Shown in pieces: positions 1-15,895 of a stretch of DNA of 15,895 bases (its first letter is position 1; every line of letters starts with the position of its first letter). The stretch comes from Gammaproteobacteria bacterium (lineage in GTDB: Bacteria > Pseudomonadota > Gammaproteobacteria > UBA4575). The stretch is taken from positions 1 to 15,895 of the forward strand of contig CBDCTA010000007.1 of assembly GCA_965221955.1 (NCBI GenBank), written 5' to 3'. The position numbers and the translations under genes were made by a program. The notes under the pieces were generated by a model that saw only the letters and a program-made list of their open reading frames with translations, did no database searches and was not told where the DNA came from.

Positions 1-1
1 T

Positions 2-73
2 TTGTTGTCTATCGCTATTGTGCTAGCATGTGTTGCTTTACTTGCAATTATAATTATTTTCGTTTTATTTTGA
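2..73 (+). CDS. 3' end of a membrane protein gene (partial, runs off the window start)
   Basis: Frame 2 reads LLSIAIVLACVALLAIIIIFVLF* (TGA 71-73), a hydrophobic C-terminal helix; the start lies outside the window. Confidence 0.4.
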   Translation: MLSIAIVLACVALLAIIIIFVLF

Positions 74-127
74 TTTAAGCTGATGTGCAATATTTAGATT
101 ATTGACAGAATACAATAATCAACACCC

Positions 128-857
128 ATGCAGTTTAGAGTTCTATTATATAACATGCACAAAGGAATCGGCGGCATTGATAAGAAGTATAAAACTCGAG
201 CCAATTGTAGAAGTTATCAAGCACTATCAACCGGATATTGCGTTACTACAAGAGGTTTCTGAAGGTGTTAACGATCACGATATCATGAGCAAATTGATTT
301 GTCAGGAGTTGTATTAGATTATGAACATCGTTTGTTTCAAGAAAATGTTAAACGTAAACTAGGTTATCATGGTGACGGAATACTTAGTAAATATTCCCTT
401 ACGAGATCTACAAGCATCAATTTAAACTGTTCCTCCAAATAAAGCGTCGGAATGGTTTGACAGCGCATGTAAATATTACGAACGGGAAGAGACAACTTAA
501 CCTCATAGTTGTAAATGTTAACCTGAGTTTTAGCTGCTTATGAGCGAGCTATACAAGTTTGTATGCTTATCGAGTGTTTCCTATATCAGCAGTGAAAATA
601 TACAACAATCGATTCTTCTTGGCAGTAACTTTAATGATGTATTGGAAAATTTATGTCGCAAAGCGTTAAATTCAAAAGGTTATGTTTCTATTCCTAAATA
701 TACAAAATCATTTCCAGCTGTTTACCCAAAATGCTCTATAGATCGCATATTCCAACATAGTGATATTAAAATTATAAAAGCATTCGTTAGACATACCGAT
801 TTAGCACGAGAGACTTTTGATCATTTACCCATGACTGTGGATTTTGCCTTAATTTAA
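128..857 (+). pseudogene. Degraded endonuclease/exonuclease/phosphatase (EEP, YbhP-like) gene
   Basis: ATG128 gives MQFRVLLYNMHKGIGG, followed across several frameshifts by QPDIALLQEV, GYHGDGILSKY, VVNVNLS, LGSNFND, KSFPAVYPKCSIDRIF and FDHLPM, i.e. EEP motifs in the correct order. Several indels are present and conserved motifs are altered (GDFN to SNFN, HL to NL). Confidence 0.8.
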
Positions 858-868
858 TTTATAGTCAA

Positions 869-2348
869 TTAAAGTATAGGTGCAAGTAATCGTGTCAAAC
901 GTGTAGCTAAACGAAAAAACCATGACTTGCCTGTAATATCATCATGAGATAACTTACTGGCATTAGAAAAAATCATCTATCAACATCTTTTCTGTTTGTT
1001 TGCAAAACTCTTTATCTACTACCACAGTATTAATTTCAAAATTTAAACGGAACGATCGATTATCCATATTGGCTGTGCCAATGACTGAATATTTCTCATC
1101 GATTAGCATGATTTTTTGATGTGCAAAACCTTTCTCGTAAAGATATATTTTCGCGCTAACTGCTTCTAAGTCATCGTAATAAGCATAAGGTGCGTATTTA
1201 AAAAGAAAGCTATCAGTTTTTCGTGGCGTCATGATTCTGACTTCCACACCTCGTAATGCTGCAAGCTGCAATGCTGCTAAAAACACGGTCATCAGGAATA
1301 AAATATGGTGATGCGATCCACACTCTTTTCTGTGCAGATTCTATACAGTGCGCAAATAAAAGCCCACATGTTTCCAATGCATCACTAGGCCCAGTTGCCG
1401 AGAATAAAGCACATTTATCTGATTCTTGTGTATTTGGGCTCCAAGATAATTCGGGTATTTCTTTTATACCAAAATACCAATCACGTAAAAATGTAAGTTG
1501 GAGAGAGCGTACGGCAGGTCCTATTATTTTAAGATGTGTATCACGCCAAAAGCCAAACTCTTCACTTCGGCCAAGATACTCATCACCAACATTCAATCCG
1601 CCTGTAAAACCAATTTTTCCATCTACAACAACAATTTTGCGATGATTTCGAAAATTTAGCCTTAGACGGTTGAACCAGCCTGTATCACTACCACTAAATC
1701 TAGATACGTTAGCACCGGCTTCGGTGAGTTCATCAATGTAGTTATCAGATAAAGCTAAGCTGCCAACTACATCATAAAGCAGCATCACTTTTTACATTTC
1801 TATTTAGCGCTCCTAGTAATGAATTTTTTAAGTCAGTGCCAATATCATCATGTCGTATAATATAATATTGTACTAGTATGTAGTCATCTGCCTGATCAAT
1901 ACTTTTAAGTATATTATCGAAAGTTGATTGTCCATTGAGTAGTAATTCAATGTGGTTTCCACATGTGAAACATGTGCCAGAAAGTTTCTTCTAAAGCAAT
2001 TAATTCGGTTTGGTTTCTTGCATCCTCAACTGTGTTTTTATCATAGGCGCAGTCACTATTGTGTTTACTTGGTTTATCGCCATTTATTTTTTCAAATTCT
2101 TGGTCAAATTCATTTACACTTTCTTTGTAGTTATAATACTTAACTCTTCCAAAGGTCCAGTAAAGAGGTACTGCGAAGAGAGGAATTGTTAATAGCGTAA
2201 CCACCCAAGCCGTTGAACCTTGAGCGGTTCTAGAATACATTACAGCATGATATGCACTATAAGCACCAATTATATATAGGATGGGTATAATCGAAGCTAT
2301 GAACGCTGTTACCCATCCACTTTCAAAAAGAGAGGTGAAATATTGCAT
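869..2348 (-). pseudogene. cls: Cardiolipin synthase (ClsA-type, PLD family), split by four +1 frameshifts (true pseudogene or sequencing error)
   Basis: N-terminal PLDc_N membrane region (AWVVTLLTIPLFAVPLYWTFG), two HKD motifs (NHRKIVVVD, HQKIMLID), WRDTH, SPYFIP, GTANMDNRSFRLNFE and C-terminal RLLAPIL*. Removing one base at each of ~1989, 1789-93, 1279-83 and 967-72 restores a ~491-aa ORF. Confidence 0.9.
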
Positions 2349-2370
2349 AAGATGAATTGTTGTATTTGAG

Positions 2371-2808
2371 TTAGTTCATCTCTGAATTTTTTCTATTTCT
2401 GAATTCCTTTCCCATTTTTTCAATTTCAGAGTCTTGAAAAACTTCTTTTGCCTTTTTGAAAACCTCATTTTCTTCTTCTTCCATATGATGTTCATTATCA
2501 TGTTTGAGTTGTTTGAATTTTTGTAACCATCCTGCGCTTGACATTGATGCATCATTTAATTCATCAATCAAGTCGAGTGCTACTTGATGTTCAGCAACAC
2601 TGTGTCGAGCTTTATCAGTTCCGTCAGGATCTTCCATTAAATTTGCATAAAAAACTTGTTCTTCAGCTGCAGCATGAGCTTTAAGTTCTTTAGTGAAGTC
2701 GTCAAAAACTCTATTGCGTTCTTGGCTATCACCCTCTGTTTTCACTAGAGTTTCCATTTGTTTGCGCTGTTTTTCATGATCTTCAATTATCTCGTCAAAA
2801 ATATTCAT
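2371..2808 (-). CDS. Hemerythrin/HHE cation-binding domain protein
   Basis: Motifs EDH, HAAAEEQVFY, HSVAEH and HHMEEEENEVF; AGGAG RBS upstream on the - strand; 22 bp from cls, so probably co-transcribed. Confidence 0.9.
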   Translation of the reverse strand: MNIFDEIIEDHEKQRKQMETLVKTEGDSQERNRVFDDFTKELKAHAAAEEQVFYANLMEDPDGTDKARHSVAEHQVALDLIDELNDASMSSAGWLQKFKQLKHDNEHHMEEEENEVFKKAKEVFQDSEIEKMGKEFRNRKNSEMN

Positions 2809-2875
2809 GCCATTACTCCTAATTAATTAAATATAAATAATGAATAAGTTTTACATATATCTTTAACTACTAGAT

Positions 2876-2888
2876 TGTAAGTTTTACA
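2876..2888. promoter_or_regulatory. Palindromic operator TGTAA-N3-TTACA (TGTAAGTTTTACA); degenerate second copy at 2843-2855
   Basis: Lies in the divergent hemerythrin/DUF4112 intergenic region; the same motif recurs at 3437, 5538, 10470 and 11803. Confidence 0.65.
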
Positions 2889-2954
2889 GCATGTATAACA
2901 AAAATATGGTTTATCCTTGTAAGTATGAAAAATGAATACATATAAATTTACTAA

Positions 2955-3410
2955 ATGACAAATAGTTCAGACCAACGTATTAAACGACTGGCATGGTTTC
3001 TAGATAGTTCTATTAGACTGCCTGGTGGTTTCCGCATTGGTGTTGAAAGCATCGTAGGTTTAGTGCCGGGAGTAGGGGATGCTATAGGTGCATTAGCTTC
3101 ATCCTACATTATCCTAGAGGCAGCTAAAATAGGTACGCCAAAGCGAACGTTGCTGAAAATGATAAAAAATGCCTTGCTAGAGGCAGTTGTTGGCACTGTT
3201 CCTATCGCGGGTGATATTTTTGATATGGCATATAAAGCAAATATGCGTAATTACAAGCTGCTTGAAAACCATATGAAAGAATCTACGCTGAAGCCGCCAC
3301 GTAGTAATAAGAAAGTAATCGCTTATATTTTAATCCTTCTGGGCATTGTATTGTTAATGCTGATATGGATTTCGTTTCAAATACTAAAACTTGCAGTTAG
3401 TTTGTTTTAG
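2955..3410 (+). CDS. DUF4112 family membrane protein
   Basis: LAWFLDSSIRLPGGFRIGVESIVGLVPGVGD and VGTVPIAGDIFDMAYKANMRN are typical DUF4112 motifs; C-terminal TM helix. Confidence 0.85.
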   Translation: MTNSSDQRIKRLAWFLDSSIRLPGGFRIGVESIVGLVPGVGDAIGALASSYIILEAAKIGTPKRTLLKMIKNALLEAVVGTVPIAGDIFDMAYKANMRNYKLLENHMKESTLKPPRSNKKVIAYILILLGIVLLMLIWISFQILKLAVSLF

Positions 3411-3436
3411 ATTTAAGGCACTTATTAAGTGTTGTA

Positions 3437-3449
3437 TGTAATATTTACA
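3437..3449. promoter_or_regulatory. Palindromic operator TGTAA-N3-TTACA (TGTAATATTTACA)
   Basis: Perfect copy upstream of the lipoprotein gene. Confidence 0.6.
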
Positions 3450-3594
3450 ATAGTAATCAGGGTACTCTCTATATAACATAATATTTTATATAACTTATAA
3501 ATAAGTATTTTAATAGATAGATGTACAGAATTAGCTGTCAATATTTATCTGAATTAAATTCCTTAATAACCACGAAGGATTAACGGATAGGGCT

Positions 3595-3960
3595 ATGAAT
3601 ATAAAAACTTTCGTAAAAATTTTATTTGGCAGTCTTGCATTAACAATGTTATGGGGATGTGAAATTGAGCAAACTCAAGAAGGAAAACTTCCTGACGTAG
3701 ATGTAGATGTCAAAAAAGGCAATCTTCCAAAATACGAAGTAATTAAAACAGAAGAAGGAAAAATGCCAGACGTTGATGTTGATGTACAGGCTGGTCAAAT
3801 ACCTAAATATGATGTTGACGCACCTGACATCGTTGTTGGAACCAAAGAAATAGAAGTAGAAGTCCCCGATGTAGATGTTGATGTAAAAATGAAAAAAGAA
3901 ACAATCGACGTACCAGTTGTAGGCATAGATATGCCTGATGATAATGATTCCAAAGAATAG
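3595..3960 (+). CDS. Acidic lipoprotein with internal PDVDVDV repeats, function unknown
   Basis: Signal peptide with lipobox LWGC (Cys22); 25-aa tandem repeat EGKLPDVDVDVKKGNLPKYEV / EGKMPDVDVDVQAGQIPKYDV. Confidence 0.8.
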   Translation: MNIKTFVKILFGSLALTMLWGCEIEQTQEGKLPDVDVDVKKGNLPKYEVIKTEEGKMPDVDVDVQAGQIPKYDVDAPDIVVGTKEIEVEVPDVDVDVKMKKETIDVPVVGIDMPDDNDSKE

Positions 3961-3987
3961 AGATTAAATAGTAAATCGATATTTGAT

Positions 3988-4012
3988 GATATGCCCTGTC
4001 ATAGGGCATATC
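3988..4012. terminator. Hairpin, likely bidirectional terminator
   Basis: GATATGCCCT-gtcat-AGGGCATATC is a perfect 10-bp stem between convergent genes; U-tracts are weak. Confidence 0.6.
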
Positions 4013-4051
4013 TATTTCACATATGTCATCTGGGAATGAACTTAAAATAGA

Positions 4052-5455
4052 CTAAAATCCATATCCTAGTGTGAAAATATATTCCTTGTCCGTACTGTCG
4101 GCACCATCTGCTGGCGATTTGTCCCATTCATAATTAGCTTGTGCCTTCGCATTAAAACCATTTCCAAGTGGAAATTTCAGACCATTTCGTGCACGAATGA
4201 CAACATCATTGGAAGTTTCTAGACCATAAAGCCCTTCTTGGTGATGAAAAATATTCATCCATTCGAATATTTTATGTTCATAATCGATAGCCCATCTTGA
4301 GGCTAAATAATCACTATCACTTTCTTCTTTAAAGTCCTCGTTTACATAACTTGGTCCAAGCTCTGCTGAGAGTAACAGATCATCTCGCTCAAAAAATTGA
4401 TAACCAACACCGGCAGATAGAGCAGTACGTAAATTTAGCAGTTCAATCTCGTCTTCTTTAAAAGATGCTGAATTAAACAAGTACCACTTATCTGATAAAA
4501 AGTGATCGTATTGAATAGAGCCGAAAGTTTCATCTTTGGTTTTATCACCATCTGACCGTTCAAATGCACGTTCAATTCGCACGGAATATCGATTATTAGG
4601 TGTACGAGCACGTAATTCTCCCGATCCTACATAGCTATCATCATCACTATTTCCACTCGATGTGCTTAAGCCGATGTCTACATCACCACTGAATTGTGCT
4701 TTTTCCTTTGCTCGAGCTATTTCAATAGGGTCGCCACGTATTATTTTTTTTACTTCAGCTAGTTTAAAATTATTATTGGTTCCTGCTCGGTCCGAATTGA
4801 CTTGTAATTGTGATCGATTGCTTTGCTTAATTCTGCCAGTAATATAGTCATGGTCATTAAACACAACAGTCATGGGATCGAAAGTGCTAAAAGATTTTAT
4901 CTTTTGACGGTCAATTGTAAGCGTATCTGCGAATTCTGTTTGAATGATGAGATTGTTTTCATCAATACCTTGAATAGTGCCCAACAATCGGTCACCACTT
5001 TTTAAAAATACTTCATCCATAGTTATAGTGATTTCATTACTCTTGGGTTTTATAGAAATACTGGGTTTTGTTACTGCATTCGATGAATCTGATTTAGTAT
5101 AAGGTTGGTGGGCTGATGCTAAGTCAGAAATATTGATATTATTGATTATGCCTAATCTTTCGGTTTGAAGTTGTAGTATTCCACCTCGCTTCATGCTTAA
5201 CAGACCGGTTAACTTGTCTTCATTATTAAATATGACGCTCATGGGTTGCTCTGTTTTGAATGAGATGACACTAATCAGAGGCATCTCTAATTTTCCAAAG
5301 ACTGGTGAATGTAAAACTAAAGTATCTTGTTGTATGCGCATAATAGAACCGCTTATTTGATCGCCATTATTAAGCTTAATTTCATCCGCATATAAATTAG
5401 TCGGTATTGCTATTAGATTGAATAGTAAAACTAATGGGCTGAATATATTTTTCAT
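4052..5455 (-). CDS. DUF481 (YdiY-like) outer-membrane beta-barrel protein with duplicated N-terminal domain
   Basis: Signal peptide ending LYA; two copies of D-x-x-x-L-x-x-GD-x-x-x-G-x-I; barrel motifs SGNS, YDHFLSDKWYLF and AGVGYQF; C-terminal LGYGF BAM-type signal. Confidence 0.85.
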   Translation of the reverse strand: MKNIFSPLVLLFNLIAIPTNLYADEIKLNNGDQISGSIMRIQQDTLVLHSPVFGKLEMPLISVISFKTEQPMSVIFNNEDKLTGLLSMKRGGILQLQTERLGIINNINISDLASAHQPYTKSDSSNAVTKPSISIKPKSNEITITMDEVFLKSGDRLLGTIQGIDENNLIIQTEFADTLTIDRQKIKSFSTFDPMTVVFNDHDYITGRIKQSNRSQLQVNSDRAGTNNNFKLAEVKKIIRGDPIEIARAKEKAQFSGDVDIGLSTSSGNSDDDSYVGSGELRARTPNNRYSVRIERAFERSDGDKTKDETFGSIQYDHFLSDKWYLFNSASFKEDEIELLNLRTALSAGVGYQFFERDDLLLSAELGPSYVNEDFKEESDSDYLASRWAIDYEHKIFEWMNIFHHQEGLYGLETSNDVVIRARNGLKFPLGNGFNAKAQANYEWDKSPADGADSTDKEYIFTLGYGF

Positions 5456-5537
5456 TTGTATTCCTTGAATTGCTCAGCGTGTGATTTCATGCAAAAGCTA
5501 CGGCATAAATTTTTACAGTAATTATAAATATTATGTT

Positions 5538-5550
5538 TGTAAATATTACA
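5538..5550. promoter_or_regulatory. Palindromic operator TGTAA-N3-TTACA (TGTAAATATTACA)
   Basis: Perfect copy near the centre of the divergent DUF481/PRC-barrel intergenic region; half-site at 5513-5517. Confidence 0.65.
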
Positions 5551-5626
5551 AAATTGAGCGAGATAAGTTATTGCAAGTTCTATTTCATATAGAATGATAT
5601 GAACTAAATTTAAACAATGTGTAGTT

Positions 5627-6256
5627 ATGAAAAAAATAAGTCAGATACACTTGATAATTTTGCTGTTTGCACTTATTTGCACTTACCCTGCTGGCGCAGA
5701 TGACGGTTGTCGAGATGATCTCATGGAAATTAGTGCAATGCGTACCACAGTACAAACTACGCCAAAATTACGTAGGGACTTACACTTTCTTAGGCAAGCA
5801 GCAAGTTTATTGCATAAGCGTGGAAAAGAAGAAGAGTGCGAAGAAACTGTTGAAGCAATGCGTGATTTGTTATCAGAACATGTCGAGAGGCAAGAGCATC
5901 AGCAGCGTCTTGAATATTTGAGCATGGCTGAAAAGTTGTCAGAGGTGAGAAATACAATTGCGGTTGAAAATATAACAGGATCACCTGTATACAATTTGAA
6001 TGGTGAGGACTTGGGCAATATCGAATCTATGGTTATAAACACACACACCGGTACAGTTGCACACGCTGTATTAAGTTATGGAGGGTTTATTGGCTTTGGG
6101 CAAAAGAATATTGCAATCGCATGGGATGCATTGAAACTTACACCTGATAGAGAATCTTATGTAGTAGATATAAGTATTGATGAACTCAATCAGGCTCCTG
6201 AATTGGATGCAGATTCGTTGCCGGATGACATTGACTTAGATTGGCTCAAGTTTTAA
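5627..6256 (+). CDS. Secreted PRC-barrel domain protein
   Basis: Signal peptide (AGA), a helical N-domain with two Cys, then ITGSPVYNLNGEDLGNIESMVI...AVLSYGGFIGFG...IAIAWDAL, typical of PRC-barrels. Confidence 0.85.
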   Translation: MKKISQIHLIILLFALICTYPAGADDGCRDDLMEISAMRTTVQTTPKLRRDLHFLRQAASLLHKRGKEEECEETVEAMRDLLSEHVERQEHQQRLEYLSMAEKLSEVRNTIAVENITGSPVYNLNGEDLGNIESMVINTHTGTVAHAVLSYGGFIGFGQKNIAIAWDALKLTPDRESYVVDISIDELNQAPELDADSLPDDIDLDWLKF

Positions 6257-6366
6257 ATAAATTTGGGCATTGTTTCAACGCAATATCGCTTGTAATAAAT
6301 TAATCATGCCAACTTTGTGGCACATGATCATCATATTTTAAATTAGAAGTAAGTTAAGAGGTCAAT

Positions 6367-6546
6367 ATGGGAATTGAAGTAGGGGGAATATTAGGGCTAA
6401 TTGTCCTGATTTTAGATATCTATGCAATTGTAAAAATTGTAGGCTCTGGTACATCAACTTTCTCAAAGGTCATATGGATTGTTGTCATTTTATTATTACC
6501 AATTCTAGGGCTTATTATTTGGCTTCTGTTTGGTCCAAAAGGTTAA
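6367..6546 (+). CDS. Small PLDc_N (phospholipase D N-terminal-like) two-TM protein, 59 aa; absent from ORF track
   Basis: GAGG RBS, then MGIEVGGILGLIVLILDIYAIVKIVGSGTSTFSKVIWIVVILLLPILGLIIWLLFGPKG*, with the characteristic KxxWxxxxxxLPxxGxxxWxxxG motif. Confidence 0.85.
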   Translation: MGIEVGGILGLIVLILDIYAIVKIVGSGTSTFSKVIWIVVILLLPILGLIIWLLFGPKG

Positions 6547-6752
6547 AGCAGGTCGGCTACTTCATATAAATACTTGCTGATTGGCATGTCTAAAGTATAT
6601 TGCGTTAAGCATTGAGTAACACTTAATATTTCTTATTAGAGATATGGATTCTAGTTAATAACAATTATAAATTACCTCAAAAAAATTTATGTAATCTTGT
6701 TTGTATATCTCACTTTAGTCAACACAACTTATTTATATTCTAAATATCTAAC

Positions 6753-8123
6753 ATGTTTCTAGAAAAAATTAAAACACCTGGGTTAGCACATTTAAGCTAT
6801 ATATTTGGAGATGGTGGTGAGGCTTGTGTTATCGATCCTCGTCGTGATATCGAGATGTATATTGAAATAGCAAGAAGTAATGGTTGTATTATCACTACAA
6901 TACTGGAAACACACCGTAATGAAGATCTCGTTTCTGGTTCTGCGATACTCGCAGACTTCACTGGTGCTACTGTCTATCATGGGCCACATGCAGATGGAGA
7001 TGTAAGATATGCAACGATCATTTCTGAAACTTCACGATTTTCATTCGGAACATTGAAAGTAGAGGTCCTTGAAACGCCTGGGCACACAAAAGATAGTTTA
7101 AGTTTTTTATTGTTCGACACGAATTTTAGTCAAAGTCCTGTAGGTGTTTTTACTGGCGATGCATTGTTTATTGGTGATGTCGGTCGAACTGATTTTTATC
7201 AAAACGAAAAAGAAAAACTAGCTGGCATGCTCTACGACAGTTTAATGAAAATTAAAAAACATGCGAGCAATGCAATTTTATACCCAGCACATGGAGCAGG
7301 CTCAGTATGTGGAGATGGTATGGCGGATCGTGAATTTTCTACAGTTGCGCATGAATTTGAGAATAATCCAATGCTGTCATTGAGTCGTGATGATTTTGTC
7401 GAAAAAAAGATTAATGAATCACATTATATCGCTCCCTATTTTAAACAAATGGAAAGGTTGAATCTTAAAGGAGCTTCAAATTCTACAAAAAGTATTCCCA
7501 AGCCATATAACTGGATGAAATTCAAAGAGCGTTATAAAGATAATGGAAATATTAAAGTAATTGATGTACGCAGTGCTGAGTCTTTTCTTGGAACATTTGT
7601 GCCAGGTAGTTTGTGTCTTCCTGTAGATATGCTAAGCGCATATGCAGGATGGCTGCTGAGTTATGACGATCATATATTTTTAGTTTCTGAGGATGTATCT
7701 CAAGCACAACAAGCAAAATTACATTTATTAAGAATTGGCTACGATAAGGTGGTGGGTTTTTTAGATAGTAGTCTTCCCATGGTGGCAGCACAAGGTGGAG
7801 AATTTGATGATCTTGAAACTGTTGATACAGAAATAGTCAAAACGCGTTTACATGATACAAATAATTGGACATTACTTGATGTTAGAAAAGATTCAGAGTT
7901 TGCAAATACATCCATTGATGGGGCGAATAATATATATCTAGGTAAACTTATAAATAAAGGTAAAAAACTAGATAAAGATAAACACTATACTGTTATGTGT
8001 GGTAGTGGAATACGAGCAACGGTAGGAGCATCTATTCTTAAGTACCTAAATTTTAATAATGTAGATGTCTATATGGGATCAATGATGGCTTGGAAAAATG
8101 CAGGCCATAAAACAGCAACCTGA
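6753..8123 (+). CDS. MBL-fold hydrolase/persulfide dioxygenase fused to two rhodanese domains (CstB-like)
   Basis: IDPRRD, ETHRNED, TPGHT, FTGDALFIGDVGRTD and YPAHGAGSVCG; two DVR rhodanese repeats; C-terminal active loop CGSGIRA. Confidence 0.85.
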   Translation: MFLEKIKTPGLAHLSYIFGDGGEACVIDPRRDIEMYIEIARSNGCIITTILETHRNEDLVSGSAILADFTGATVYHGPHADGDVRYATIISETSRFSFGTLKVEVLETPGHTKDSLSFLLFDTNFSQSPVGVFTGDALFIGDVGRTDFYQNEKEKLAGMLYDSLMKIKKHASNAILYPAHGAGSVCGDGMADREFSTVAHEFENNPMLSLSRDDFVEKKINESHYIAPYFKQMERLNLKGASNSTKSIPKPYNWMKFKERYKDNGNIKVIDVRSAESFLGTFVPGSLCLPVDMLSAYAGWLLSYDDHIFLVSEDVSQAQQAKLHLLRIGYDKVVGFLDSSLPMVAAQGGEFDDLETVDTEIVKTRLHDTNNWTLLDVRKDSEFANTSIDGANNIYLGKLINKGKKLDKDKHYTVMCGSGIRATVGASILKYLNFNNVDVYMGSMMAWKNAGHKTAT

Positions 8124-8356
8124 GTATCTAAGTGTTGTAAATCCAGCTAAAACCAAAAACATATATTCGTTATATTGCAGCTCATCTCATACATTTTGCA
8201 TGATTTATTGTAAACTTGATGAAACTAAGCCAAACTTAGAGTATGTTGTTAACCAAGTTTAATAATATAGTCTTAGATTAGACATATCTCCACTTGCTTA
8301 TTTTCTTGACAAAGTTTATAGGGTGGGAGTGCTTAATCTTATAAGATTAGAAGCAT

Positions 8357-9601
8357 ATGTCTAATAACGATAGTCAAGCACGACAAATCGCAACTGACTA
8401 CCTGCATGAAAATGCAGAGAAATTAGTAAAAGTATGGATTGATTGGTTACAAGAGCGTGTGCAGACCACAACCATCAAATCCTTACCGGAACGCGCACTG
8501 CGGAATCATATCCCCCCGATTCTGCATAGTCTGGCTAATTTTATTTCAAATCCGGCAGAAATCACACGTCAAGAAATATTAGGGCATTTAAAAATCCATG
8601 GACAGATCCGTAGAGATCAAGGATACACCTTAGAAGAAGTACTTGCAGAATTTGATGGTTTAGCGGGTGTGATTACAGCCGATGTCAATTCAGTTCTATT
8701 TGATGCTATTGAGAAGCTGACCCCAAAAGACATTATTGAAGCACTTACTAACCTAGCAAGTGGCTTGAGGACGATTAGTTTTGTTGCAATGGGCACATAT
8801 TCGCAAACAGATCGAGAGCGTGCAAAGACAACTTCTGAAGGTATGGAGGAAATGACGCGTGCAGTTGTGCATGAGTTGAGAAATCCACTCAACGCAGTAA
8901 CCCTGAACCTTGGTTTAATAAAAGAAGATAATCCTAATATTGAAAACTTAGAAGAAAGTGTGGATTTATGCCTCAGTTCAATCAATCAGGCCTCGGAAAT
9001 TTTAAATTCAATAAAAAATTTAGCCTTAATCGACCTTGCTATGTCCGGAAAATATTTGATTACGCTGCGTGAAATTGCTGAAAGCTTAAAATCAGAATAT
9101 AAAGAAGAAACTGTAAATAAAGGTGTGGAAATTCGATTTGAAGATCACATGCCTGAAGTTAGTATTGAAGCAGTGCCTTTATACATTGTGTTAACCAATT
9201 TAATTACAAATAGTATTAAATATGCAGATAAAACTAAAGATGAACAATTTGTAAGTATAAAAGCAAAGCTTATAGAAGAGGAAAATGATTCTGGATTTTG
9301 TCAAATTGAGGTGCGTGATAATGGAATTGGAATACCAGAAGAACTGCTCGCGCGTGTTTGCCAAAAAGGTTTCCGCGCACATCCTGGTGTAGGTCAAGGC
9401 ACAGGATATGGACTTCATTATGCCCGTGACTCACTCTTAACACGTGGGGGTGCTCTAGAAATTGAAAGTAAAGAGAATGAAGGTACTATAGTTAAAGTTC
9501 GAATACGTTGTTTGTCACCTGAATCTGATGCAATATGTGCAGATCAATATCGAATTGAACATTTGATGGGTGAGAAAGTGTTCGAAAATAACTATAGATA
9601 A
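8357..9601 (+). CDS. Cytoplasmic sensor histidine kinase with N-terminal RsbRD_N (globin-like) domain
   Basis: HGQIRRDQGYTLEEVLAEF (RsbRD_N-like); H-box VHELRNPL; N-box NLITNSIKY; G-boxes DNGIGI and GTGYGL; no TM segments. Confidence 0.85.
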   Translation: MSNNDSQARQIATDYLHENAEKLVKVWIDWLQERVQTTTIKSLPERALRNHIPPILHSLANFISNPAEITRQEILGHLKIHGQIRRDQGYTLEEVLAEFDGLAGVITADVNSVLFDAIEKLTPKDIIEALTNLASGLRTISFVAMGTYSQTDRERAKTTSEGMEEMTRAVVHELRNPLNAVTLNLGLIKEDNPNIENLEESVDLCLSSINQASEILNSIKNLALIDLAMSGKYLITLREIAESLKSEYKEETVNKGVEIRFEDHMPEVSIEAVPLYIVLTNLITNSIKYADKTKDEQFVSIKAKLIEEENDSGFCQIEVRDNGIGIPEELLARVCQKGFRAHPGVGQGTGYGLHYARDSLLTRGGALEIESKENEGTIVKVRIRCLSPESDAICADQYRIEHLMGEKVFENNYR

Positions 9602-9614
9602 AATAACTATAGAT
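9585..9614 (+). repeat. Perfect 15-bp tandem duplication AAAATAACTATAGAT x2 overlapping the kinase stop codon
   Basis: 9585-9599 is identical to 9600-9614. Confidence 0.85.
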
Positions 9615-9670
9615 AATGAGTTCTCTATAAACGAAATCTAGCAAATAAAACAATATAATCGCTAAAGTAA

Positions 9671-10270
9671 CTACGCTGTCAATTCTATGATGGCTTTGTA
9701 AACTAACCAGTAAGTAATTAGAGAAGATGCGATACCTATAAGAATCCATATTCCATCATGCATGGTGAGGCCAACTGATATTAGAAGTAGTGACAAACCT
9801 GGAACCATCACAGCAAAAGGCAGAATTTCAAGAGGCGCCATGCTAATTCCAAGAGAAAAGCTAATTAAACCGATCACATTAAGCCACGGTTCTTTAGTGA
9901 GGTAACTAACTCTCGGCTTTATGAACTCCTCAATTTTATTGACTGGTTTTTCAAGCTTGTCTAATGAAGAATCTAATTTCTTTCTAGTGATTTCAAAATT
10001 TGTAATTTTATTAGGCAGCCAAGGGTATTCAATACTAATTATGAGTTGTATCGAAACAATCGTAACGATAATTCCTGCGAGTGTAGGAACCCCAGGTATT
10101 GCTCCTGTCGGTAGTACAGCAAGCAATGCGGGTATCAATAACATAGGACCATATACTCTTGATGAAAAGATGTTTAATAGCTTTTCAATCGGAATATCAG
10201 CACTATCTTCTTGTTTGCGAAGCTCTACTATTACATCAATTAGATGATCCGGTGCGTTTTTATCTGACAT
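9671..10270 (-). CDS. exoD: Exopolysaccharide synthesis ExoD family membrane protein
   Basis: RVYGPMLLIPALLAVLPTGAIPG, PWLP, IKPR and PLEILPFAVMVPG...GLTMHDG. ATG at 10270 is preferred because the track's GTG at 10300 lies inside a terminator hairpin. Confidence 0.85.
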   Translation of the reverse strand: MSDKNAPDHLIDVIVELRKQEDSADIPIEKLLNIFSSRVYGPMLLIPALLAVLPTGAIPGVPTLAGIIVTIVSIQLIISIEYPWLPNKITNFEITRKKLDSSLDKLEKPVNKIEEFIKPRVSYLTKEPWLNVIGLISFSLGISMAPLEILPFAVMVPGLSLLLISVGLTMHDGIWILIGIASSLITYWLVYKAIIELTA

Positions 10271-10285
10271 TTTAAATAATTTTTT

Positions 10286-10321
10286 AAAAAATAGACCCAC
10301 AGTATGGATGCTGTGAGTCTA
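10286..10321 (-). terminator. Rho-independent terminator immediately upstream of exoD
   Basis: The - strand reads TAGACTCACAG-catccata-CTGTGGGTCTA-TTTTTT: 11-bp stem with one U.G pair and a U6 tail. Confidence 0.75.
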
Positions 10322-10430
10322 AAGGGAGTGGAGCAATTTATGCTCCGAGTGAGTCCTCCCGGACTTATTGTGCTTTTGCGTCAAAAATTATTGATGCTCA
10401 TAATTGATAAAACGCCACTTAATTTAGTGA
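10286..10430 (-). ncRNA. Candidate sRNA or exoD leader RNA (5' end uncertain)
   Basis: GC-rich structured island (GGGAG...GGAGCA-taaat-TGCTCC-a-CTCCC) followed by a terminator; possible -10 TATACT at 10435-10440 on the - strand. Confidence 0.4.
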
Positions 10431-10469
10431 CATAAGTATACTAAGCAGAGCATGCTTGATTGTTAAAAT

Positions 10470-10482
10470 TGTAAAATCTACA
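10470..10482. promoter_or_regulatory. TGTAA-N3-TTACA operator with one mismatch (TGTAAAATCTACA)
   Basis: Lies in the divergent region between the RNA candidate/exoD and the small peptide/EEP genes. Confidence 0.55.
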
Positions 10483-10565
10483 TAAAGAATGCAATTTAAA
10501 TATAATTTTAAATGCTTCGGTTATATACTGGTATCTCAAAATAACGATAATAATTGGAGTCTAAA

Positions 10566-10643
10566 ATGCCTAGAAATATCTTTTATATCATTGGCGTTAT
10601 TGTAGTCATTGTGATTGTTCTTAAATTATTAGGTCTTTGGTAG
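10566..10643 (+). CDS. 25-aa single-pass membrane peptide; absent from ORF track
   Basis: GGAG RBS 6 nt upstream; MPRNIFYIIGVIVVIVIVLKLLGLW*; preceded by the regulon box. Confidence 0.7.
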   Translation: MPRNIFYIIGVIVVIVIVLKLLGLW

Positions 10644-10722
10644 ATACCAATTAAATTTAGTCTATGTTTGGGATAAATATAGTATTCAAAATTAATCTAA
10701 TTTAACGTTCATTCGCGCCAGG

Positions 10723-11778
10723 GTGAAAGGGATATTTTATCTTTTCGCGATATTTTTAATACTCGCTACACTATTACCAATTATCAGAAATGATGATTGG
10801 TGGTTGCGTGTGTTTGAATTTCCAAGATTACAAATTGCAGTCCTTAGCTGCATTTTGTTTTTATTCGCGTTTTTCTTAATTGAGCATCACAATGTATTCT
10901 TTATTTGTGTAAGTTTTTTGCTCATTGCATCTGCTGTTTATCAATTTGTAAAAATTATTCCCTATACTTCGTTTCATCCGCAACAAATGCATGCTGCTGA
11001 TGCGGAGAGCACCGGACAACCATTCAAACTGATGATGTCTAATGTGCTCATGTCGAATAAAAATATAGACGGTTTGGCCAAATTAGTAATTCAACATCAG
11101 CCTGATATATTGCTAGTCATTGAAACAGATGAAATGTGGTGCCAAGATTTAAATTCAAAACTTGATTTTAAATATGAGGTTGCAGAGCCTCTGGAAAATA
11201 CATATGGGATGGTGCTTTATTCTAATTTTGAGTTACAGAATTCAAAAATAGAGTATTTGATTGAAGACGATGTACCGTCTATTCATGCCCAAGTAAAATT
11301 ACCTAACAACAAAACAGTTTCTTTACATTGTTTGCACCCAAAACCACCTGCTCCTCAAGAAAGTGAGGATACCACTGAAAGAGATGCCGAATTACTGATA
11401 GTCGGTAAGATTGTGCGTGAACAAAATATACCAACAATCGTTGCTGGTGATTTGAATGATGTAGCTTGGTCATATACCACTAAGTTATTTCAAAAGATTA
11501 GTGGCTTGCTCGATCCTAGAATTGGAAGGGGAATGATTAATACTTTTCATGCAAAACTCTTGTTTCTACGCTTTCCCTTAGATCATGCATTTGCATCTGA
11601 GGACTTTGCTTTAATTAATATAAAACGATTACCCGGATTTGGGTCAGATCATTTTCCTATGCTAATTGAACTGGTTCTAAATGAGATGAATCGTAATTTA
11701 CATGATGCGCCTTCAGCAGATATAGAAGATAAATCGAAGGCAGAAGAGAAAATTGAGAAAGCATTTGATGACCAATAG
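10723..11778 (+). CDS. Membrane-anchored endonuclease/exonuclease/phosphatase family protein (YafD-like)
   Basis: N-terminal TM helices (WWLRVFEFPRLQ), SNVL, PDILLVIETD, NTYGMVLYS, HPKPP, AGDLNDVAWS, PLDH and GSDHFP. Confidence 0.9.
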   Translation: MKGIFYLFAIFLILATLLPIIRNDDWWLRVFEFPRLQIAVLSCILFLFAFFLIEHHNVFFICVSFLLIASAVYQFVKIIPYTSFHPQQMHAADAESTGQPFKLMMSNVLMSNKNIDGLAKLVIQHQPDILLVIETDEMWCQDLNSKLDFKYEVAEPLENTYGMVLYSNFELQNSKIEYLIEDDVPSIHAQVKLPNNKTVSLHCLHPKPPAPQESEDTTERDAELLIVGKIVREQNIPTIVAGDLNDVAWSYTTKLFQKISGLLDPRIGRGMINTFHAKLLFLRFPLDHAFASEDFALINIKRLPGFGSDHFPMLIELVLNEMNRNLHDAPSADIEDKSKAEEKIEKAFDDQ

Positions 11779-11802
11779 CTTAAATATTGAAGAAGCATTC
11801 TA

Positions 11803-11815
11803 TGTAAATATTACA
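11803..11815. promoter_or_regulatory. Palindromic operator TGTAA-N3-TTACA (TGTAAATATTACA)
   Basis: Perfect copy ~85 bp upstream of the metallothionein ATG; -10-like TAGACT at ~11850. Confidence 0.65.
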
Positions 11816-11900
11816 ATATTATCTCAATAATGCATTATTTTTGATTACATAGACTAAGATATCTGTATTAAAAAGTGTACCAGTCAGAGAGGTAGTATTT

Positions 11901-12080
11901 ATGGCGACAAATAATGACGAAATTAATATGATGATGCTTTGTGCACATGATACTTGTCGATGCGTAATTAATGCTGATCAAGGTGTAATTAAAGACGATA
12001 ATCTCTATTGCAGTCATCTATGTTCCGAAGGTAAATCTTGCGGACATAGTTTTTGTAACTGTGTTGGAGAAGGCGAATAA
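11901..12080 (+). CDS. smtA: Bacterial metallothionein (SmtA/BmtA family), 59 aa; absent from ORF track
   Basis: GAGAGG RBS; MATNNDEINMMMLCAHDTCRCVINADQGVIKDDNLYCSHLCSEGKSCGHSFCNCVGEGE* has 8 Cys and 3 His in the SmtA pattern CxxxxCxC...YCSxxC...CGHxxCxC. Confidence 0.85.
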   Translation: MATNNDEINMMMLCAHDTCRCVINADQGVIKDDNLYCSHLCSEGKSCGHSFCNCVGEGE

Positions 12081-12113
12081 CAGCGTTGGTCAAACTTCAA
12101 TAGGAATTAATCG

Positions 12114-12377
12114 ATGAAAAAAACATCTGACACATTTATCAATTCTAATGAAGAATATGTAAAACTTCGAAATAGCCAAGCACCAGGTATAGATAAGACA
12201 CCAAGAGAACAACCAAAGTCACAAATTCCAGGTTATCGTGGTCATGACAATCCTGAATATGCGCAGTGGACGGATCGAGAGTTGGCTGAACTAGCAAATA
12301 CTTTAAATATCAATTTTAGTGATGATATAAATCGAGATGATTTGATTAATCTTATATTAGAAAAAGAAAAACGCTGA
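12114..12377 (+). CDS. Small protein with C-terminal Rho_N-like helical domain
   Basis: AGGA RBS; YAQWTDRELAELANTLNINFSDDINRDDLINLI resembles Rho-termination-factor N-terminal-like repeats; 33 bp after smtA. Confidence 0.6.
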   Translation: MKKTSDTFINSNEEYVKLRNSQAPGIDKTPREQPKSQIPGYRGHDNPEYAQWTDRELAELANTLNINFSDDINRDDLINLILEKEKR

Positions 12378-12697
12378 TTTATATATAAAAAGTATTAACA
12401 CCACCGCTAGATGGATGACAATGTTATTTCATAATATTTTGATAACCTTATTCACATTTATACGCAAAAAAATAATTATTCTATTTTTAATATTTTTGAT
12501 TTTACAGCATCATTATCTGAAGACGAGGAAATTCAAATATACGTATCCACCAACCGTCATGTTTAATCATTGGTAATACCGTAATGATTAAATAGATCAG
12601 CACACAAATGTAATGAGCTTCTTTCATAGATTAATTTGCAATTTGTTGAACAGCTGTCAGACTCGAGAGCCTCTTTAATTAATTATTAGTTGCCAAT

Positions 12698-13066
12698 ATG
12701 TTCGATGTAATTATAGAAACTACGATCGATTCGCTTGCCCTTGAGCTAGGTTTGGAATATCACTTTGTAGTATATGTTACGAATAAAGGTACCAAACGCT
12801 CTCTTTCAATAATACCTGAGCTTGATGTACTAATAGACCAAATAGACACCTCTATTTGTCATAGTAATGAAACGGAGGTTTGCATAGGTGATAAGCAACC
12901 TAGAGCTCAAATCAAATTAGATGTAGAAGAAAGAGTTAGCTTTACAGTATTTATTACTTGTAATATAGCACTAGAATCAGAGCCCGGTCATAGATTGAAT
13001 ATTTATGCTGAGGATGAGGCAAATACACGTGTTGGAACAACGGGGATCTCTATCACAACGTTATAA
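12698..13066 (+). CDS. Hypothetical protein, beta-rich
   Basis: 122-aa ORF with no recognised motif and no clear RBS. Confidence 0.5.
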   Translation: MFDVIIETTIDSLALELGLEYHFVVYVTNKGTKRSLSIIPELDVLIDQIDTSICHSNETEVCIGDKQPRAQIKLDVEERVSFTVFITCNIALESEPGHRLNIYAEDEANTRVGTTGISITTL

Positions 13067-13089
13067 CCGTTTTAATGTTTTTTTAACTT

Positions 13090-13485
13090 TTATTCTTTAT
13101 CAAAACTATCCACAATAATTGCCCCCATAGAGGCTGGCATCGTTATTACGATGAGCCTTTTTAATGCGATTGCAGGCTCTGTAAACAAAGGAAATTTATC
13201 AAGAGATAATAGTATTAATGCCACAATCACCCCTGCAATGGCATAAGCAACAACTATTCTGAACAAAAATATAGGTACTCTGTGCTTAATATTTCCCTGA
13301 AATACACTTTGATAGGTAAAGAACGAGAGAAAAATTACTGACAAACTAAATAGGATTGCTAAATTAAATACTGGAAGAGTTACTCCTAGCTTCCAGGCTT
13401 CTTCAGAGAAAGAAATGGGTACGCCTAAAGCAAATGCACCTATAGCAACCTGACTCGCATCTTCAAGGTTAAAGTGATATTTCAT
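13090..13485 (-). CDS. DUF2391 family membrane protein
   Basis: EDASQVAIGAFALGVPISFSEEAW and C-terminal PASMGAIIVDSFDKE; four hydrophobic segments. Confidence 0.8.
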   Translation of the reverse strand: MKYHFNLEDASQVAIGAFALGVPISFSEEAWKLGVTLPVFNLAILFSLSVIFLSFFTYQSVFQGNIKHRVPIFLFRIVVAYAIAGVIVALILLSLDKFPLFTEPAIALKRLIVITMPASMGAIIVDSFDKE

Positions 13486-14016
13486 TTAGTCCTAGTTTCT
13501 ATGAATGTCCGCTTTGGGTCGTAAGCGGTCAATTAAAAAATTGCAAAGTTATTAAAAAATTTTCTGACATTGGGACCCCTAAATACATTATTACTGATGC
13601 AATGTTTGTCCCCCTAGGGGGTCATTACTGATTGATAAGAATGCTTTTATATCAAGGAGTTAATTCATGGAAACATCAAACCTGCTAGCGCAGCAAGTTT
13701 GATTGTTCCCACTTTTTGTATTCATGATCTATATAAATCAATGACTTCTTTACGTTAGATTCGGTATTTAAGTCGAATTTGTACCGTTTTGTATAAGCAA
13801 AACTAATGATTATTCTCTCTTTTTATGTGTGAGGGTAAGGGAGAAACACGTACCCATGCCTTTTTTTTAGTGTTGAGGTAACGCGCATGCAGCAACCTTG
13901 TATGGATTTATTCAATTTAGTCGTACGTATAACAAACTCGATCGGAAAGAGCTTTATTAAATTTCTTTAAATCAAAAGAATAGTAGTTCTTCACTATGAT
14001 TCGCTGGAGTTTAACA

Positions 14017-15105
14017 ATGGCTAATCAATCTGCGGCAATTGCAAAGATCTCTCCAATACACCCTCATCATGAGTTCAATTTAAAAACAGCAATTGAGCTT
14101 GATATGTTCAAATATCCTAAGCGTGACTGGCTGTTAGAGCCTTGGTTGCGAGAAAGAATGTTAGTCATGGTCCATGCCCCAACAGGAGTGGGTAAAAGTT
14201 GGTTTGCTTGGAGTGTTGCTATTGGGATTGCATCTGGCAAAGGGTATGCACAATGGTCATGCCCCAAGGCAAGTAAAGTTCTCATAATCGATGGTGAAAT
14301 GCAGCCTGATGATCTACAGGATCGTGCTAGATTTTTACGTAAAAATTTCAAGCTAAGTAAACCACAATTAAATCAACTCAAACATAACTTAGTAGTACTA
14401 GCTCGACAGGACCAAGACCCAGACCATGAATTTCCTGATCTAAATGAAACTGATGATCAAGATAGATTTTTAGAAGTTATTCGAGAGGTTAATCCTGACC
14501 TGGTGATTCTAGATAATTTATCGACACTTGCTAACCTTGAAGATGAGAATGCTGCACACGCATTTAACAACATATTCAGATTTCTAACTAAGATTAAACA
14601 AGAACGTTCAGGCATGCTTGTTCACCATGATCGTAAAGGTACAGATAAAGATACAACTGAGGGTTACAGGGGTAGTAGCAAGATGGCTGCCATATTTGAA
14701 CAAAGAATACACCTGAGTCAGGTACATGAAGGACAGAGGCCTAAAGATACAGGAGCTTGTTTTTATTGCGACTTTAAGAAAAATCGTTATCTCAGTGACG
14801 ACAGCATGAAAACAAAGATCTTTGCATTGCATACAAAACTTGGATGGATAATAGAAGAAGATGAGAATGAGGAGCTGAAAAAATTTGCTGCAGCTGTGCG
14901 TTCTTGTAATTTTACGACATTAACCGAGGTTGGTCGTCACTTTGGCCACAAGAGGGCTTGGGCATCAAAACAAAATAATAAATGTGCAATTCAAGGTTAT
15001 CTTGAGCCAAATGAATACATCGCATGCTGCGATAAGGCTAAACAAAAACTTGCGCTAGATGAGATGGGTGAAAAGGAGCTAAATAAGTTATCTCCAAATG
15101 AGTGA
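14017..15105 (+). CDS. AAA_25 / RepA-like (SF4-type) helicase with possible C-terminal HTH
   Basis: WLLEPWL, Walker A APTGVGKS, LIIDGEM, Walker B LVILDNL, LVHHDRK and YRGSS; C-terminal TLTEVGRHFGHKRAWASK is HTH-like. ATG14017 has a GGAG RBS (the track start is 13996). Confidence 0.8.
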   Translation: MANQSAAIAKISPIHPHHEFNLKTAIELDMFKYPKRDWLLEPWLRERMLVMVHAPTGVGKSWFAWSVAIGIASGKGYAQWSCPKASKVLIIDGEMQPDDLQDRARFLRKNFKLSKPQLNQLKHNLVVLARQDQDPDHEFPDLNETDDQDRFLEVIREVNPDLVILDNLSTLANLEDENAAHAFNNIFRFLTKIKQERSGMLVHHDRKGTDKDTTEGYRGSSKMAAIFEQRIHLSQVHEGQRPKDTGACFYCDFKKNRYLSDDSMKTKIFALHTKLGWIIEEDENEELKKFAAAVRSCNFTTLTEVGRHFGHKRAWASKQNNKCAIQGYLEPNEYIACCDKAKQKLALDEMGEKELNKLSPNE

Positions 15106-15128
15106 ATAACTGAAGAAAAGTAGACACT

Positions 15129-15153
15129 CGAGGGGGTGTTTTGCACCCTCTCG
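15129..15153 (+). terminator. Hairpin downstream of the helicase
   Basis: CGAGGGGGTG-ttttg-CACCCTCTCG forms a 10-bp stem with one G.U pair; weak U-tail. Confidence 0.55.
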
Positions 15154-15184
15154 TATTAATCCCTTATATTTGTTTTATATGTGA

Positions 15185-15359
15185 TGTTTCCATGTATCTT
15201 TCTTTAATGGTCGGAAACAGGATACAGGTGCTAAGTAATTGTTTTGATGCCAAAAATTCAATATTTATTATTAATGTTTCCTGGCTTTTTGGAAACATGT
15301 TCTATCTAAATATAAGCTAAGATAGGTCTCTGTTTACAGAGATCTAAGGTTGGGAAACA
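15185..15359. repeat. Cluster of GGAAACA/TGTTTCC heptamers in both orientations (iteron-like)
   Basis: TGTTTCC at 15185 and 15275; GGAAACA at 15213, 15291 and 15353; variant GGATACA at 15220. Confidence 0.7.
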
Positions 15360-15553
15360 ATTTCTACAATTATTATATTAATTGGAAAATCTCATGATTT
15401 GGATTTTTACATAGTTTTTTCTGCCATAAATGGTAAATAGGATGATTTTACGATTCTTATAGCTTGTCTCATGAATACTTTGGTATTTGAGTAATTGTTT
15501 GTTTTAGTTTTCTATAGAATGAGTGTAGACAGTCTAGAATTCAGGAGATAAAA

Positions 15554-15895
15554 ATGGGTGTTGTAGCTTGTCGTGGAAATTCAGAATTCAATGATGAAAT
15601 CACACTTAAGGCACATTTGGCTTCACTGCTCCGGCTTGAGAATATTGGCTTACTTTTAGGGGCTGGGTCATCTGTCCCTGCGGGCGGTTTGACGATTGAA
15701 CAAATGTGGGACCAATTTATTGCAAATTCATCTAATGATGTTCAATGGTTAATAAATGAAGAGTTTATTTCTAATGATGCTAAAAGTGAAAATAAAGAAC
15801 AGCGTATAACACCTAACATTGAGCAACTTGTCGATAAACTAGAAATTGCAATTATCGAATGGACTCGAATTTCAAGTAAGCATTTGGAGAATGGA
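15554..15895 (+). CDS. SIR2-family NADase (Sir2-HerA type), 5' part only; absent from ORF track
   Basis: AGGAG RBS; MGVVACRGNSEFNDEITLKAHLASLLRLENIGLLLGAGSSVPAGGLTIEQMWDQF...PNIEQLVD, open to the window end; contains the Sir2 GAGxS loop. Confidence 0.85.
   Translation, partial: MGVVACRGNSEFNDEITLKAHLASLLRLENIGLLLGAGSSVPAGGLTIEQMWDQFIANSSNDVQWLINEEFISNDAKSENKEQRITPNIEQLVDKLEIAIIEWTRISSKHLENG

Follow-up and report, generated by a model that had tools for sequence, protein, structure and literature searches.

A short palindrome recurring in five intergenic regions of a gammaproteobacterial contig, the probable operator of a dimeric regulator

The TyrR box is an 18-bp inverted repeat, TGTAAA-N6-TTTACA, and boxes of the LysR type are T-N11-A dyads that usually lie near position -65, with the LysR gene divergently adjacent. 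Regulons of the Fur family are typically spread over many promoters, and Lrp octamers typically use arrays of phased, cooperative sites. The present work concerns a palindrome of 13 bp, TGTAA-N3-TTACA (TGTAANNNTTACA), in a 15,895-nt stretch of DNA (contig CBDCTA010000007.1, positions 1 to 15,895), the whole of which is referred to below as the window. Copies of this palindrome, here called boxes, recur in intergenic DNA far more often than expected, and are probably the operators of one regulator encoded elsewhere. The nearest homologues point to a gammaproteobacterial host: a protein with MBL and rhodanese domains has its best named relatives, about 55% identical to it, in Microbulbifer and Aliiglaciecola, and the best homologues of the DUF481 protein are unnamed metagenomic proteins.

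Among the closest systems described, the GacA/UvrY box is given as TGTAAGN6CTTACA, with a length of 18 bp (PMC3171408). Boxes of the Fur family have a 7-1-7 layout, and each single 7-1-7 repeat is reported to bind one dimer (PMC5007448); the consensus 15-mers quoted are TCGTAATnATTACGA for the Gram-positive Zur box and TTATAATnATTATAA for the PerR box (PMC545781, PMC2706843), and in Synechococcus WH8102 Zur boxes precede a metallothionein gene (PMC3323870). For the Lrp/AsnC family, the source gives 13-bp sites of the form abcdeWWWedcba, the natural consensus of Ss-LrpB being TTGYAWWWWWTRCAA (PMC2715240). The site quoted for HexR of Pseudomonas is TTGT-N7-8-ACAA (PMC5489143, PMC6531821, PMC11544825), while that of its paralogue RccR is a 15-bp TGTAGT-N3-ACTACA (PMC5489143). 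The palindrome of the window belongs to this common architectural class, and its presumed regulon is undescribed only in that the organism is unstudied. A preliminary description of the window, made from the sequence alone, had argued from a spacing unlike that of the GacA and TyrR boxes to a site of an undescribed kind; that argument fails, since an odd palindrome of 13–15 bp around an A/T centre is standard in at least three families of regulators. The exact motif strings matched no bacterial publication in the literature library searched.

Copies of the palindrome and their placement

A scan of the whole window found four perfect copies of TGTAA-N3-TTACA, at 2876, 3437, 5538 and 11803, just where the preliminary description had placed them; 0.07 copies were expected, and none of 200 dinucleotide shuffles yielded four or more. 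All four lie in intergenic DNA, which by our own gene map makes up 3239 of the 15,895 bases (20.4%; 29% GC, against 37% in coding DNA) and in which 0.016 copies were expected. One mismatch is present in two copies: an intergenic one at 10470, and one at 468, within a decayed, frameshifted EEP pseudogene whose translation around the copy is still coding-like. The core TGTA-N5-TACA has exactly five matches, all intergenic and including that at 10470 (0.41 expected; five in 0 of 200 shuffles). Five boxes are therefore counted here, and the earlier inclusion of the site at 10470 was right. That the boxes are all intergenic, as had been claimed, holds for these five, though the copy at 468 had been missed. 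Copies with up to two mismatches are not enriched (24 against 18.4 expected; 24 were reached in 21 of 200 shuffles), and the two-mismatch copies, which include those at 2843 and 2918, thus carry no evidential weight. This removes the copy at 2843 from the set initially proposed.

The choice of the motif after the fact was corrected for by evaluating all 5-mer inverted repeats (1024 half-sites × 11 spacers, 0–10) in 1000 shuffles. By raw count, four or more copies were reached in seven of the 1000 shuffles with spacer N3, and in 68 with any spacer from 0 to 10. The smallest Poisson p value, 2.3e-7, was that of TGTAA with spacer 3, and it was equalled in none of the 1000 shuffles; the shuffles with high raw counts fall short of the observed level because the expectation of each motif itself is used. 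The excess thus survives family-wise correction for the after-the-fact choice, and the motif is real and non-random. The sites are as follows:

2876..2888: box 1, perfect (TGTAAGTTTTACA), midway between the divergent hemerythrin-like gene and the DUF4112 gene
2918..2930: possible weak second site, two mismatches, 42 bp from box 1
3437..3449: box 2, perfect; the DUF4112 stop codon lies 27 nt before it and the ATG of the lipoprotein gene (3595) 146 nt after it
5538..5550: box 3, perfect (TTGTAAATATTACAA when its flanks are included), between the divergent genes for the DUF481/YdiY-like barrel and the PRC-barrel protein
10470..10482: box 4, a single mismatch (TGTAAAATCTACA), flanked by the minus-strand exoD leader and the gene for a 25-aa hydrophobic peptide
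11803..11815: box 5, perfect; the EEP stop codon lies 25 nt before it and the ATG of the metallothionein gene (11901) 86 nt after it

With one further base on each side, the five boxes read TTGTAAGTTTTACAG, ATGTAATATTTACAA, TTGTAAATATTACAA, TTGTAAAATCTACAT and ATGTAAATATTACAA, which corresponds to wTGTAAw-N-wTTACAw. Beyond this core of 13–15 bp, the 45-nt flanks on both sides have nothing in common. A mobile repeat (a miniature inverted-repeat transposable element or a repetitive extragenic palindromic sequence) and a duplicated promoter segment were also considered as the source of the copies; both are ruled out, since the flanks share no extended sequence. A position weight matrix (PWM) built from the boxes was used to search for secondary sites within 70 bp of each. 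Only the site at 2918 was found (score 6.5; the 99.9th percentile of the window is 5.3), the other four regions having none, so one site per region is the rule.

The genes that flank the boxes, all putative targets, are:

2371..2808, minus strand: hemerythrin HHE-domain protein (ATG 2808; Pfam)
2955..3410, plus strand: DUF4112 membrane protein (ATG 2955; Pfam)
3595..3960, plus strand: lipoprotein with repeated acidic PDVDVDV units (no family match)
4052..5455, minus strand: DUF481 (YdiY-like) outer-membrane barrel with an N-terminal extension (ATG 5455; Pfam)
5627..6256, plus strand: PRC-barrel protein (ATG 5627; Pfam)
9671..10270, minus strand: ExoD-family membrane protein (Pfam)
10566..10643, plus strand: 25-aa hydrophobic peptide (ATG 10566)
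11901..12080, plus strand: prokaryotic metallothionein of the BmtA/SmtA type (PF02069, 43.5 bits; cut-off 33)

On this gene map three of the box regions are divergent, as first described: hemerythrin-like/DUF4112, DUF481/PRC-barrel and exoD/small peptide. In the former two the box is near-central, its edges lying 68 and 67 nt, and 83 and 77 nt, from the respective start codons. Boxes 2 and 5 (3437 and 11803) instead trail a co-directional gene by 25–27 nt and precede the lipoprotein and metallothionein genes. The position is regular: the box edge is 67–86 nt from six of the eight flanking start codons (68, 67, 83, 77, 84 and 86 nt). The lipoprotein gene starts 146 nt from its box, and exoD, which has a long structured leader, 170–200 nt. 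Boxes are present in five of the nine promoter-capable gaps that we read on the map between 2809 and 11900, so the earlier wording that they mark most promoter regions was generous.

Several features of the flanking genes deserve mention in their own right. The hemerythrin-domain protein has a sub-threshold NCBIfam match to the PA2171 family of ribosome-binding persister proteins (57 bits; cut-off 190). The repeat unit of the lipoprotein (3595–3960) is G-K-L/M-P-D-V-D-V-D-V...P-K-Y-E/D-V, and neither Pfam nor NCBIfam gave a match for it. The exoD leader (10271–10440, minus strand) contains a 155-nt fold of -46.4 kcal/mol (z = -5.9), matched by none of 200 shuffles, and ends in an 11-bp terminator hairpin (10321–10292) followed by a U-run; from there it is some 15 nt to the ATG at 10270. 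This ATG is probably the start of exoD, rather than the GTG at 10300, a codon within the terminator hairpin. The leader had no Rfam family match and is a candidate riboswitch or attenuator. On the other side of box 4, the EEP gene at 10723–11778 may be co-transcribed with the gene for the 25-aa peptide. An open reading frame (ORF) of 87 aa lies 33 nt downstream of the metallothionein gene.

Conservation in related loci

Related loci were collected by scanning genome contigs with a profile of the DUF481 protein (an alignment of 17 sequences), which yielded 80 loci and 1,232,868 bases. Since no other gene of the window was syntenic in these loci, conservation could be examined for box 3 alone. 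The core TGTA-N5-TACA has 10 matches in the 1,232,868 bases, against five in the 15,895-base window. Two of the loci, L001 (71% identity, 43% GC) and L002 (49% identity), contain a long-form orthologue of the DUF481 gene. In L001 a one-mismatch box, TGTCAAACTTACA, ends 85 nt before the ATG, compared with 83 nt in the window, and is the best PWM match across the whole 21.4-kb locus. In 5000 shuffles of the 428-bp spacer in which it lies, the probability of finding a copy with at most one mismatch was 0.052, and that of finding one whose distance differed by no more than 15 nt was 0.0036. Conservation is thus supported in one of the two testable cases.

The shorter DUF481 paralogues (L003–L009 and L024) have a different upstream region that is itself conserved. 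When the low-GC loci were scanned with the PWM, matches also appeared in L005 and L009; these were rejected as different palindromes, leaving the L001 site as the only meaningful one. The palindrome of L005 (5549–5561, ACTGTATTAATTACAGT) is unlike that of the window and unrelated to it in spacing; an ORF called MsrA-like from its translation follows after 41 nt. In L001 itself, the DUF481 orthologue (10001–11412) is split into two ORFs (10001–10501 and 10591–11412), either as a pseudogene or through a frameshift or faulty assembly. Its neighbourhood consists of housekeeping genes (smpB, an SNF transporter, and members of the RnfH and RecN families); no gene of the Fur, Lrp, RpiR or LysR families was recognized there, an ORF read as the HrcA repressor (17636–18682) not having been scanned. 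A distant blastn search of a plasmid collection with positions 2301–10300 of the window returned one irrelevant match, to the MBL gene.

The boxes as candidate operators

We consider that the five boxes are probably the operators of a single regulator that binds DNA as a homodimer and whose gene lies outside the window, and would put the probability of this at about 0.65. It is suggested by the short, perfect dyad, by its confinement to promoter-proximal intergenic DNA and by its regular distance from start codons; the central position in divergent spacers, the unconserved flanks and the conservation of one orthologous copy point the same way, and the geometry equals that of characterized operators of dimeric regulators. 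The earlier proposal that one dimeric regulator co-controls these regions is therefore supported by the data, while for each gene we infer membership of the regulon, as we do the binding of a protein, the family of that protein, the signal it answers to and whether it represses or activates.

Each site, with the core TGTA-N5-TACA and the full form wTGTAAw-N-wTTACAw (13–15 bp), would take one dimer in the promoter-proximal part of its intergenic region, and in the three divergent regions a single bound dimer could control both promoters of the pair. The box centre is 73–92 nt upstream of six start codons; given ordinary 5′ leaders, the site would fall roughly between promoter positions -30 and -60, where a repressor could occlude the -35 hexamer or an activator could work from about -41. 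Repression through -35 occlusion would be our weakly held preference because the box halves (TTTACA, ATTACA) resemble -35 hexamers, and stress or a metal might be the signal that lifts it. Under common control would then be the genes for the hemerythrin-like protein, the DUF4112 protein, the lipoprotein, the YdiY-like barrel, the PRC-barrel protein, ExoD, the small membrane peptide and the metallothionein, possibly with the EEP gene along with the small peptide. A MerR-type placement, with the dyad centred in a 19-bp spacer, was considered for box 4 and rejected by eye, the dyad being off-centre.

A number of observations weigh against the boxes being operators of this kind. A good -10-like hexamer lies 16–19 nt from a box half in only one of ten directions (box 4, TCTACA-18-TATAAT), and such hexamers are no commoner near the boxes than in the intergenic background, which leaves -35 occlusion unsupported. 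Four of the nine promoter-capable gaps have no box, namely those upstream of the PLDc_N, MBL-rhodanese, histidine kinase and EEP genes. Neither Pfam nor NCBIfam recognized a DNA-binding regulator among the scanned ORFs of the window, several small ORFs having no family at all; this agrees with the earlier statement that the window encodes no such regulator. Among the related loci, the lack of synteny beyond the DUF481 gene is joined by the absence of a perfect box from all 80, and L002 has no copy with one mismatch or none anywhere in the locus, so that conservation rests on one orthologue.

The palindrome might be accounted for with no dedicated regulator at all, as two overlapping, back-to-back -35 hexamers of divergent sigma-70 promoters. 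Its halves read TTTACA (five of ten), ATTACA (three), CTTACA and TCTACA, which match TTGACA at four or five of six positions; three of the five regions are divergent; and the promoter consensus scan gave TTTACA-16-TATGGT at box 1 and TCTACA-18-TATAAT at box 4, where the right half of the box overlaps the -35-like hexamer. Such an origin is nevertheless very unlikely, as boxes 2 and 5 follow a co-directional gene and would have a leftward promoter without a gene to serve, -35 function needs neither an exact 3-bp spacing nor a conserved TGTAA arm, promoter-like sites are not enriched overall (59 against 68.9 in shuffles), and the -10 hexamers show only the background frequency already mentioned. 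More improbable still, to the point of being hard to credit, is an origin by chance or base composition in intergenic DNA rich in AT, or from what is left of a short mobile repeat. Some 5-mer palindrome reaches four raw copies with one spacer or another in 68 of the 1000 shuffles, and copies with one or two mismatches are not enriched; against this stand the Poisson p value that no shuffle equalled, the 0.016 copies expected in intergenic DNA, the flanks that share nothing past the core and the copy at the orthologous place in L001.

If the boxes are operators of one regulator, three families come into question. A Fur-family paralogue (Zur- or PerR-like) ranks first among the families because the regulon is scattered, two targets are related to metals and a metallothionein gene has a precedent as a Zur target in Synechococcus WH8102 (PMC3323870), but it is unlikely when taken by itself. 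Each box would then be one 7-1-7 site in a regulon that responds to metals or oxidative stress. All five extend to wTGTAAw-N-wTTACAw, a 15-bp odd inverted repeat with the 7-1-7 layout, an A/T centre and room for the one dimer that a single repeat takes (PMC5007448); the GTAA/TTAC core is in register with the quoted Gram-positive Zur box and near the PerR box, and the metallothionein and the hemerythrin cation-binding protein are metal-linked. The differences lie in heptamer positions 2, 3 and 7, TTGTAAw here against TCGTAAT, TTATAAT and TGATAAT; position 7 is A in six of the ten half-sites by our count, where the family consensus has T. Only the site at 5537 (box 3 in its 15-bp form) comes within three mismatches of the Zur or PerR 15-mers, with exactly three, the other four boxes exceeding this number. 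The gammaproteobacterial Zur and Fur consensus sequences are unlike the motif; and Pfam and NCBIfam found in the window neither a Fur-family gene nor the classic targets znuABC, ribosomal paralogues, catalase, ahpC and iron uptake genes. Besides the metallothionein and the hemerythrin-domain protein, the targets include nothing for uptake or detoxification. An Lrp/AsnC (feast/famine) protein is somewhat less probable. The four perfect boxes satisfy abcdeWWWedcba in their arms, the central triplet consists of A and T in four of the five boxes (TAT, ATA, ATA and AAT, the exception being GTT), and against the Ss-LrpB consensus TTGYAWWWWWTRCAA the boxes have 0, 1, 1, 2 and 2 mismatches, the 5537 site agreeing at all 15 positions and each of the other boxes at 13 or 14 of the 15. 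Ss-LrpB is archaeal, as are the reference proteins, and its degenerate formula fits 12 other places in the window with at most two mismatches, whereas the E. coli Lrp consensus YAGHAWATTWTDCTR is fitted by none of the boxes. Phased arrays are absent from four of the five regions in the 70-bp search, the weak site 42 bp from box 1 (2918) being perhaps the exception, and the targets are not genes of amino-acid metabolism. A HexR/RccR-like repressor of the RpiR family, which is common in Gammaproteobacteria, is a distinctly poor candidate, even for a host that appears gammaproteobacterial by its nearest homologues. Outer arms and spacing agree with TTGT-N7-ACAA (0, 1, 1, 1 and 1 mismatches) and dimers of these proteins are described as repressing promoters, but with just eight bases fixed the formula is of low specificity, and the window has 12 further places that fit it with at most one mismatch. 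The inner AA/TT, conserved here, is outside the published HexR formula, the TGTA/TACA arms of RccR are 2 bp further apart than those of the window motif, and none of the glucose or glyoxylate metabolism targets of these proteins, nor any central-carbon gene (zwf, edd, eda, gap, aceE), is among the flanking genes. The Ss-LrpB and HexR formulae each fit a dozen unrelated places, and the targets match the classic regulon of none of the three families.

The GacA/UvrY and TyrR boxes resemble the motif in their TGTAA/TTACA half-sites and differ in their 6-bp spacer. Their length of 18 bp had been stated correctly in the preliminary description, and both were rejected as identities for the boxes, none of the five coming within three mismatches of either 18-mer; no Rfam small RNA (sRNA) match that would provide a GacA context was found in the window. 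Formally, TGTAA-N3-TTACA is also a T-N11-A dyad of the LysR type, and Pfam recognized no adjacent LysR gene.

As a type, this would be a conventional operator with its regulon, whose regulator and signal the window by itself does not reveal. We put forward only tentatively, as a doubtful reading, that they belong to an uncatalogued stress or metal regulon whose regulator, with an undescribed specificity (TTGTAA-N3-TTACAA, between the PerR and Zur codes), directly controls conserved ‘general stress’ genes whose function is not known. With the same reserve, its set might be the hemerythrin-like, DUF4112, YdiY/DUF481, PRC-barrel, ExoD, small membrane peptide and BmtA genes. Genes of this sort are mostly under RpoS control in model Gammaproteobacteria. 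Such a regulon, if real, would open a single experimental route to a number of uncharacterized domains. Should the regulator be found, one signal would join eight poorly understood genes, including those for DUF4112, DUF481/YdiY, the PRC-barrel protein, ExoD and the metallothionein, and would hint at a function common to them in an uncultured marine lineage.

Other genes of the window

Besides the families named for the flanking genes, Pfam found PLDc_N, MBL plus rhodanese, a histidine kinase with RsbRD_N, EEP, DUF2391 and AAA_25. Rfam and tRNA scans of the window found nothing relevant. At the left end, an EEP-family gene (102–857) is decayed and lies in at least four frame pieces. Downstream of the hemerythrin gene, at 963–2348, a cardiolipin synthase gene (cls) is present as three ORFs, corresponding to PLDc_N, PLD domain 1 and PLD domain 2. 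These broken EEP and cls genes may be true pseudogenes or may reflect assembly frameshifts. The histidine kinase (8357–9601) is an orphan with an N-terminal sensor domain of the RsbRD_N type; it has no response regulator nearby and no box upstream.

The right end of the window, which is boxless, looks like a mobile or defence island. It contains a gene for an AAA_25 (RepA-like) ATPase at 13996–15105 and, at 15554–15895, the first part of a SIR2 anti-phage-associated gene, the last ORF of the window. Its NCBIfam match (NF042942, E = 1e-31) stays below the full-length cut-off of the model, since the window ends within the ORF.

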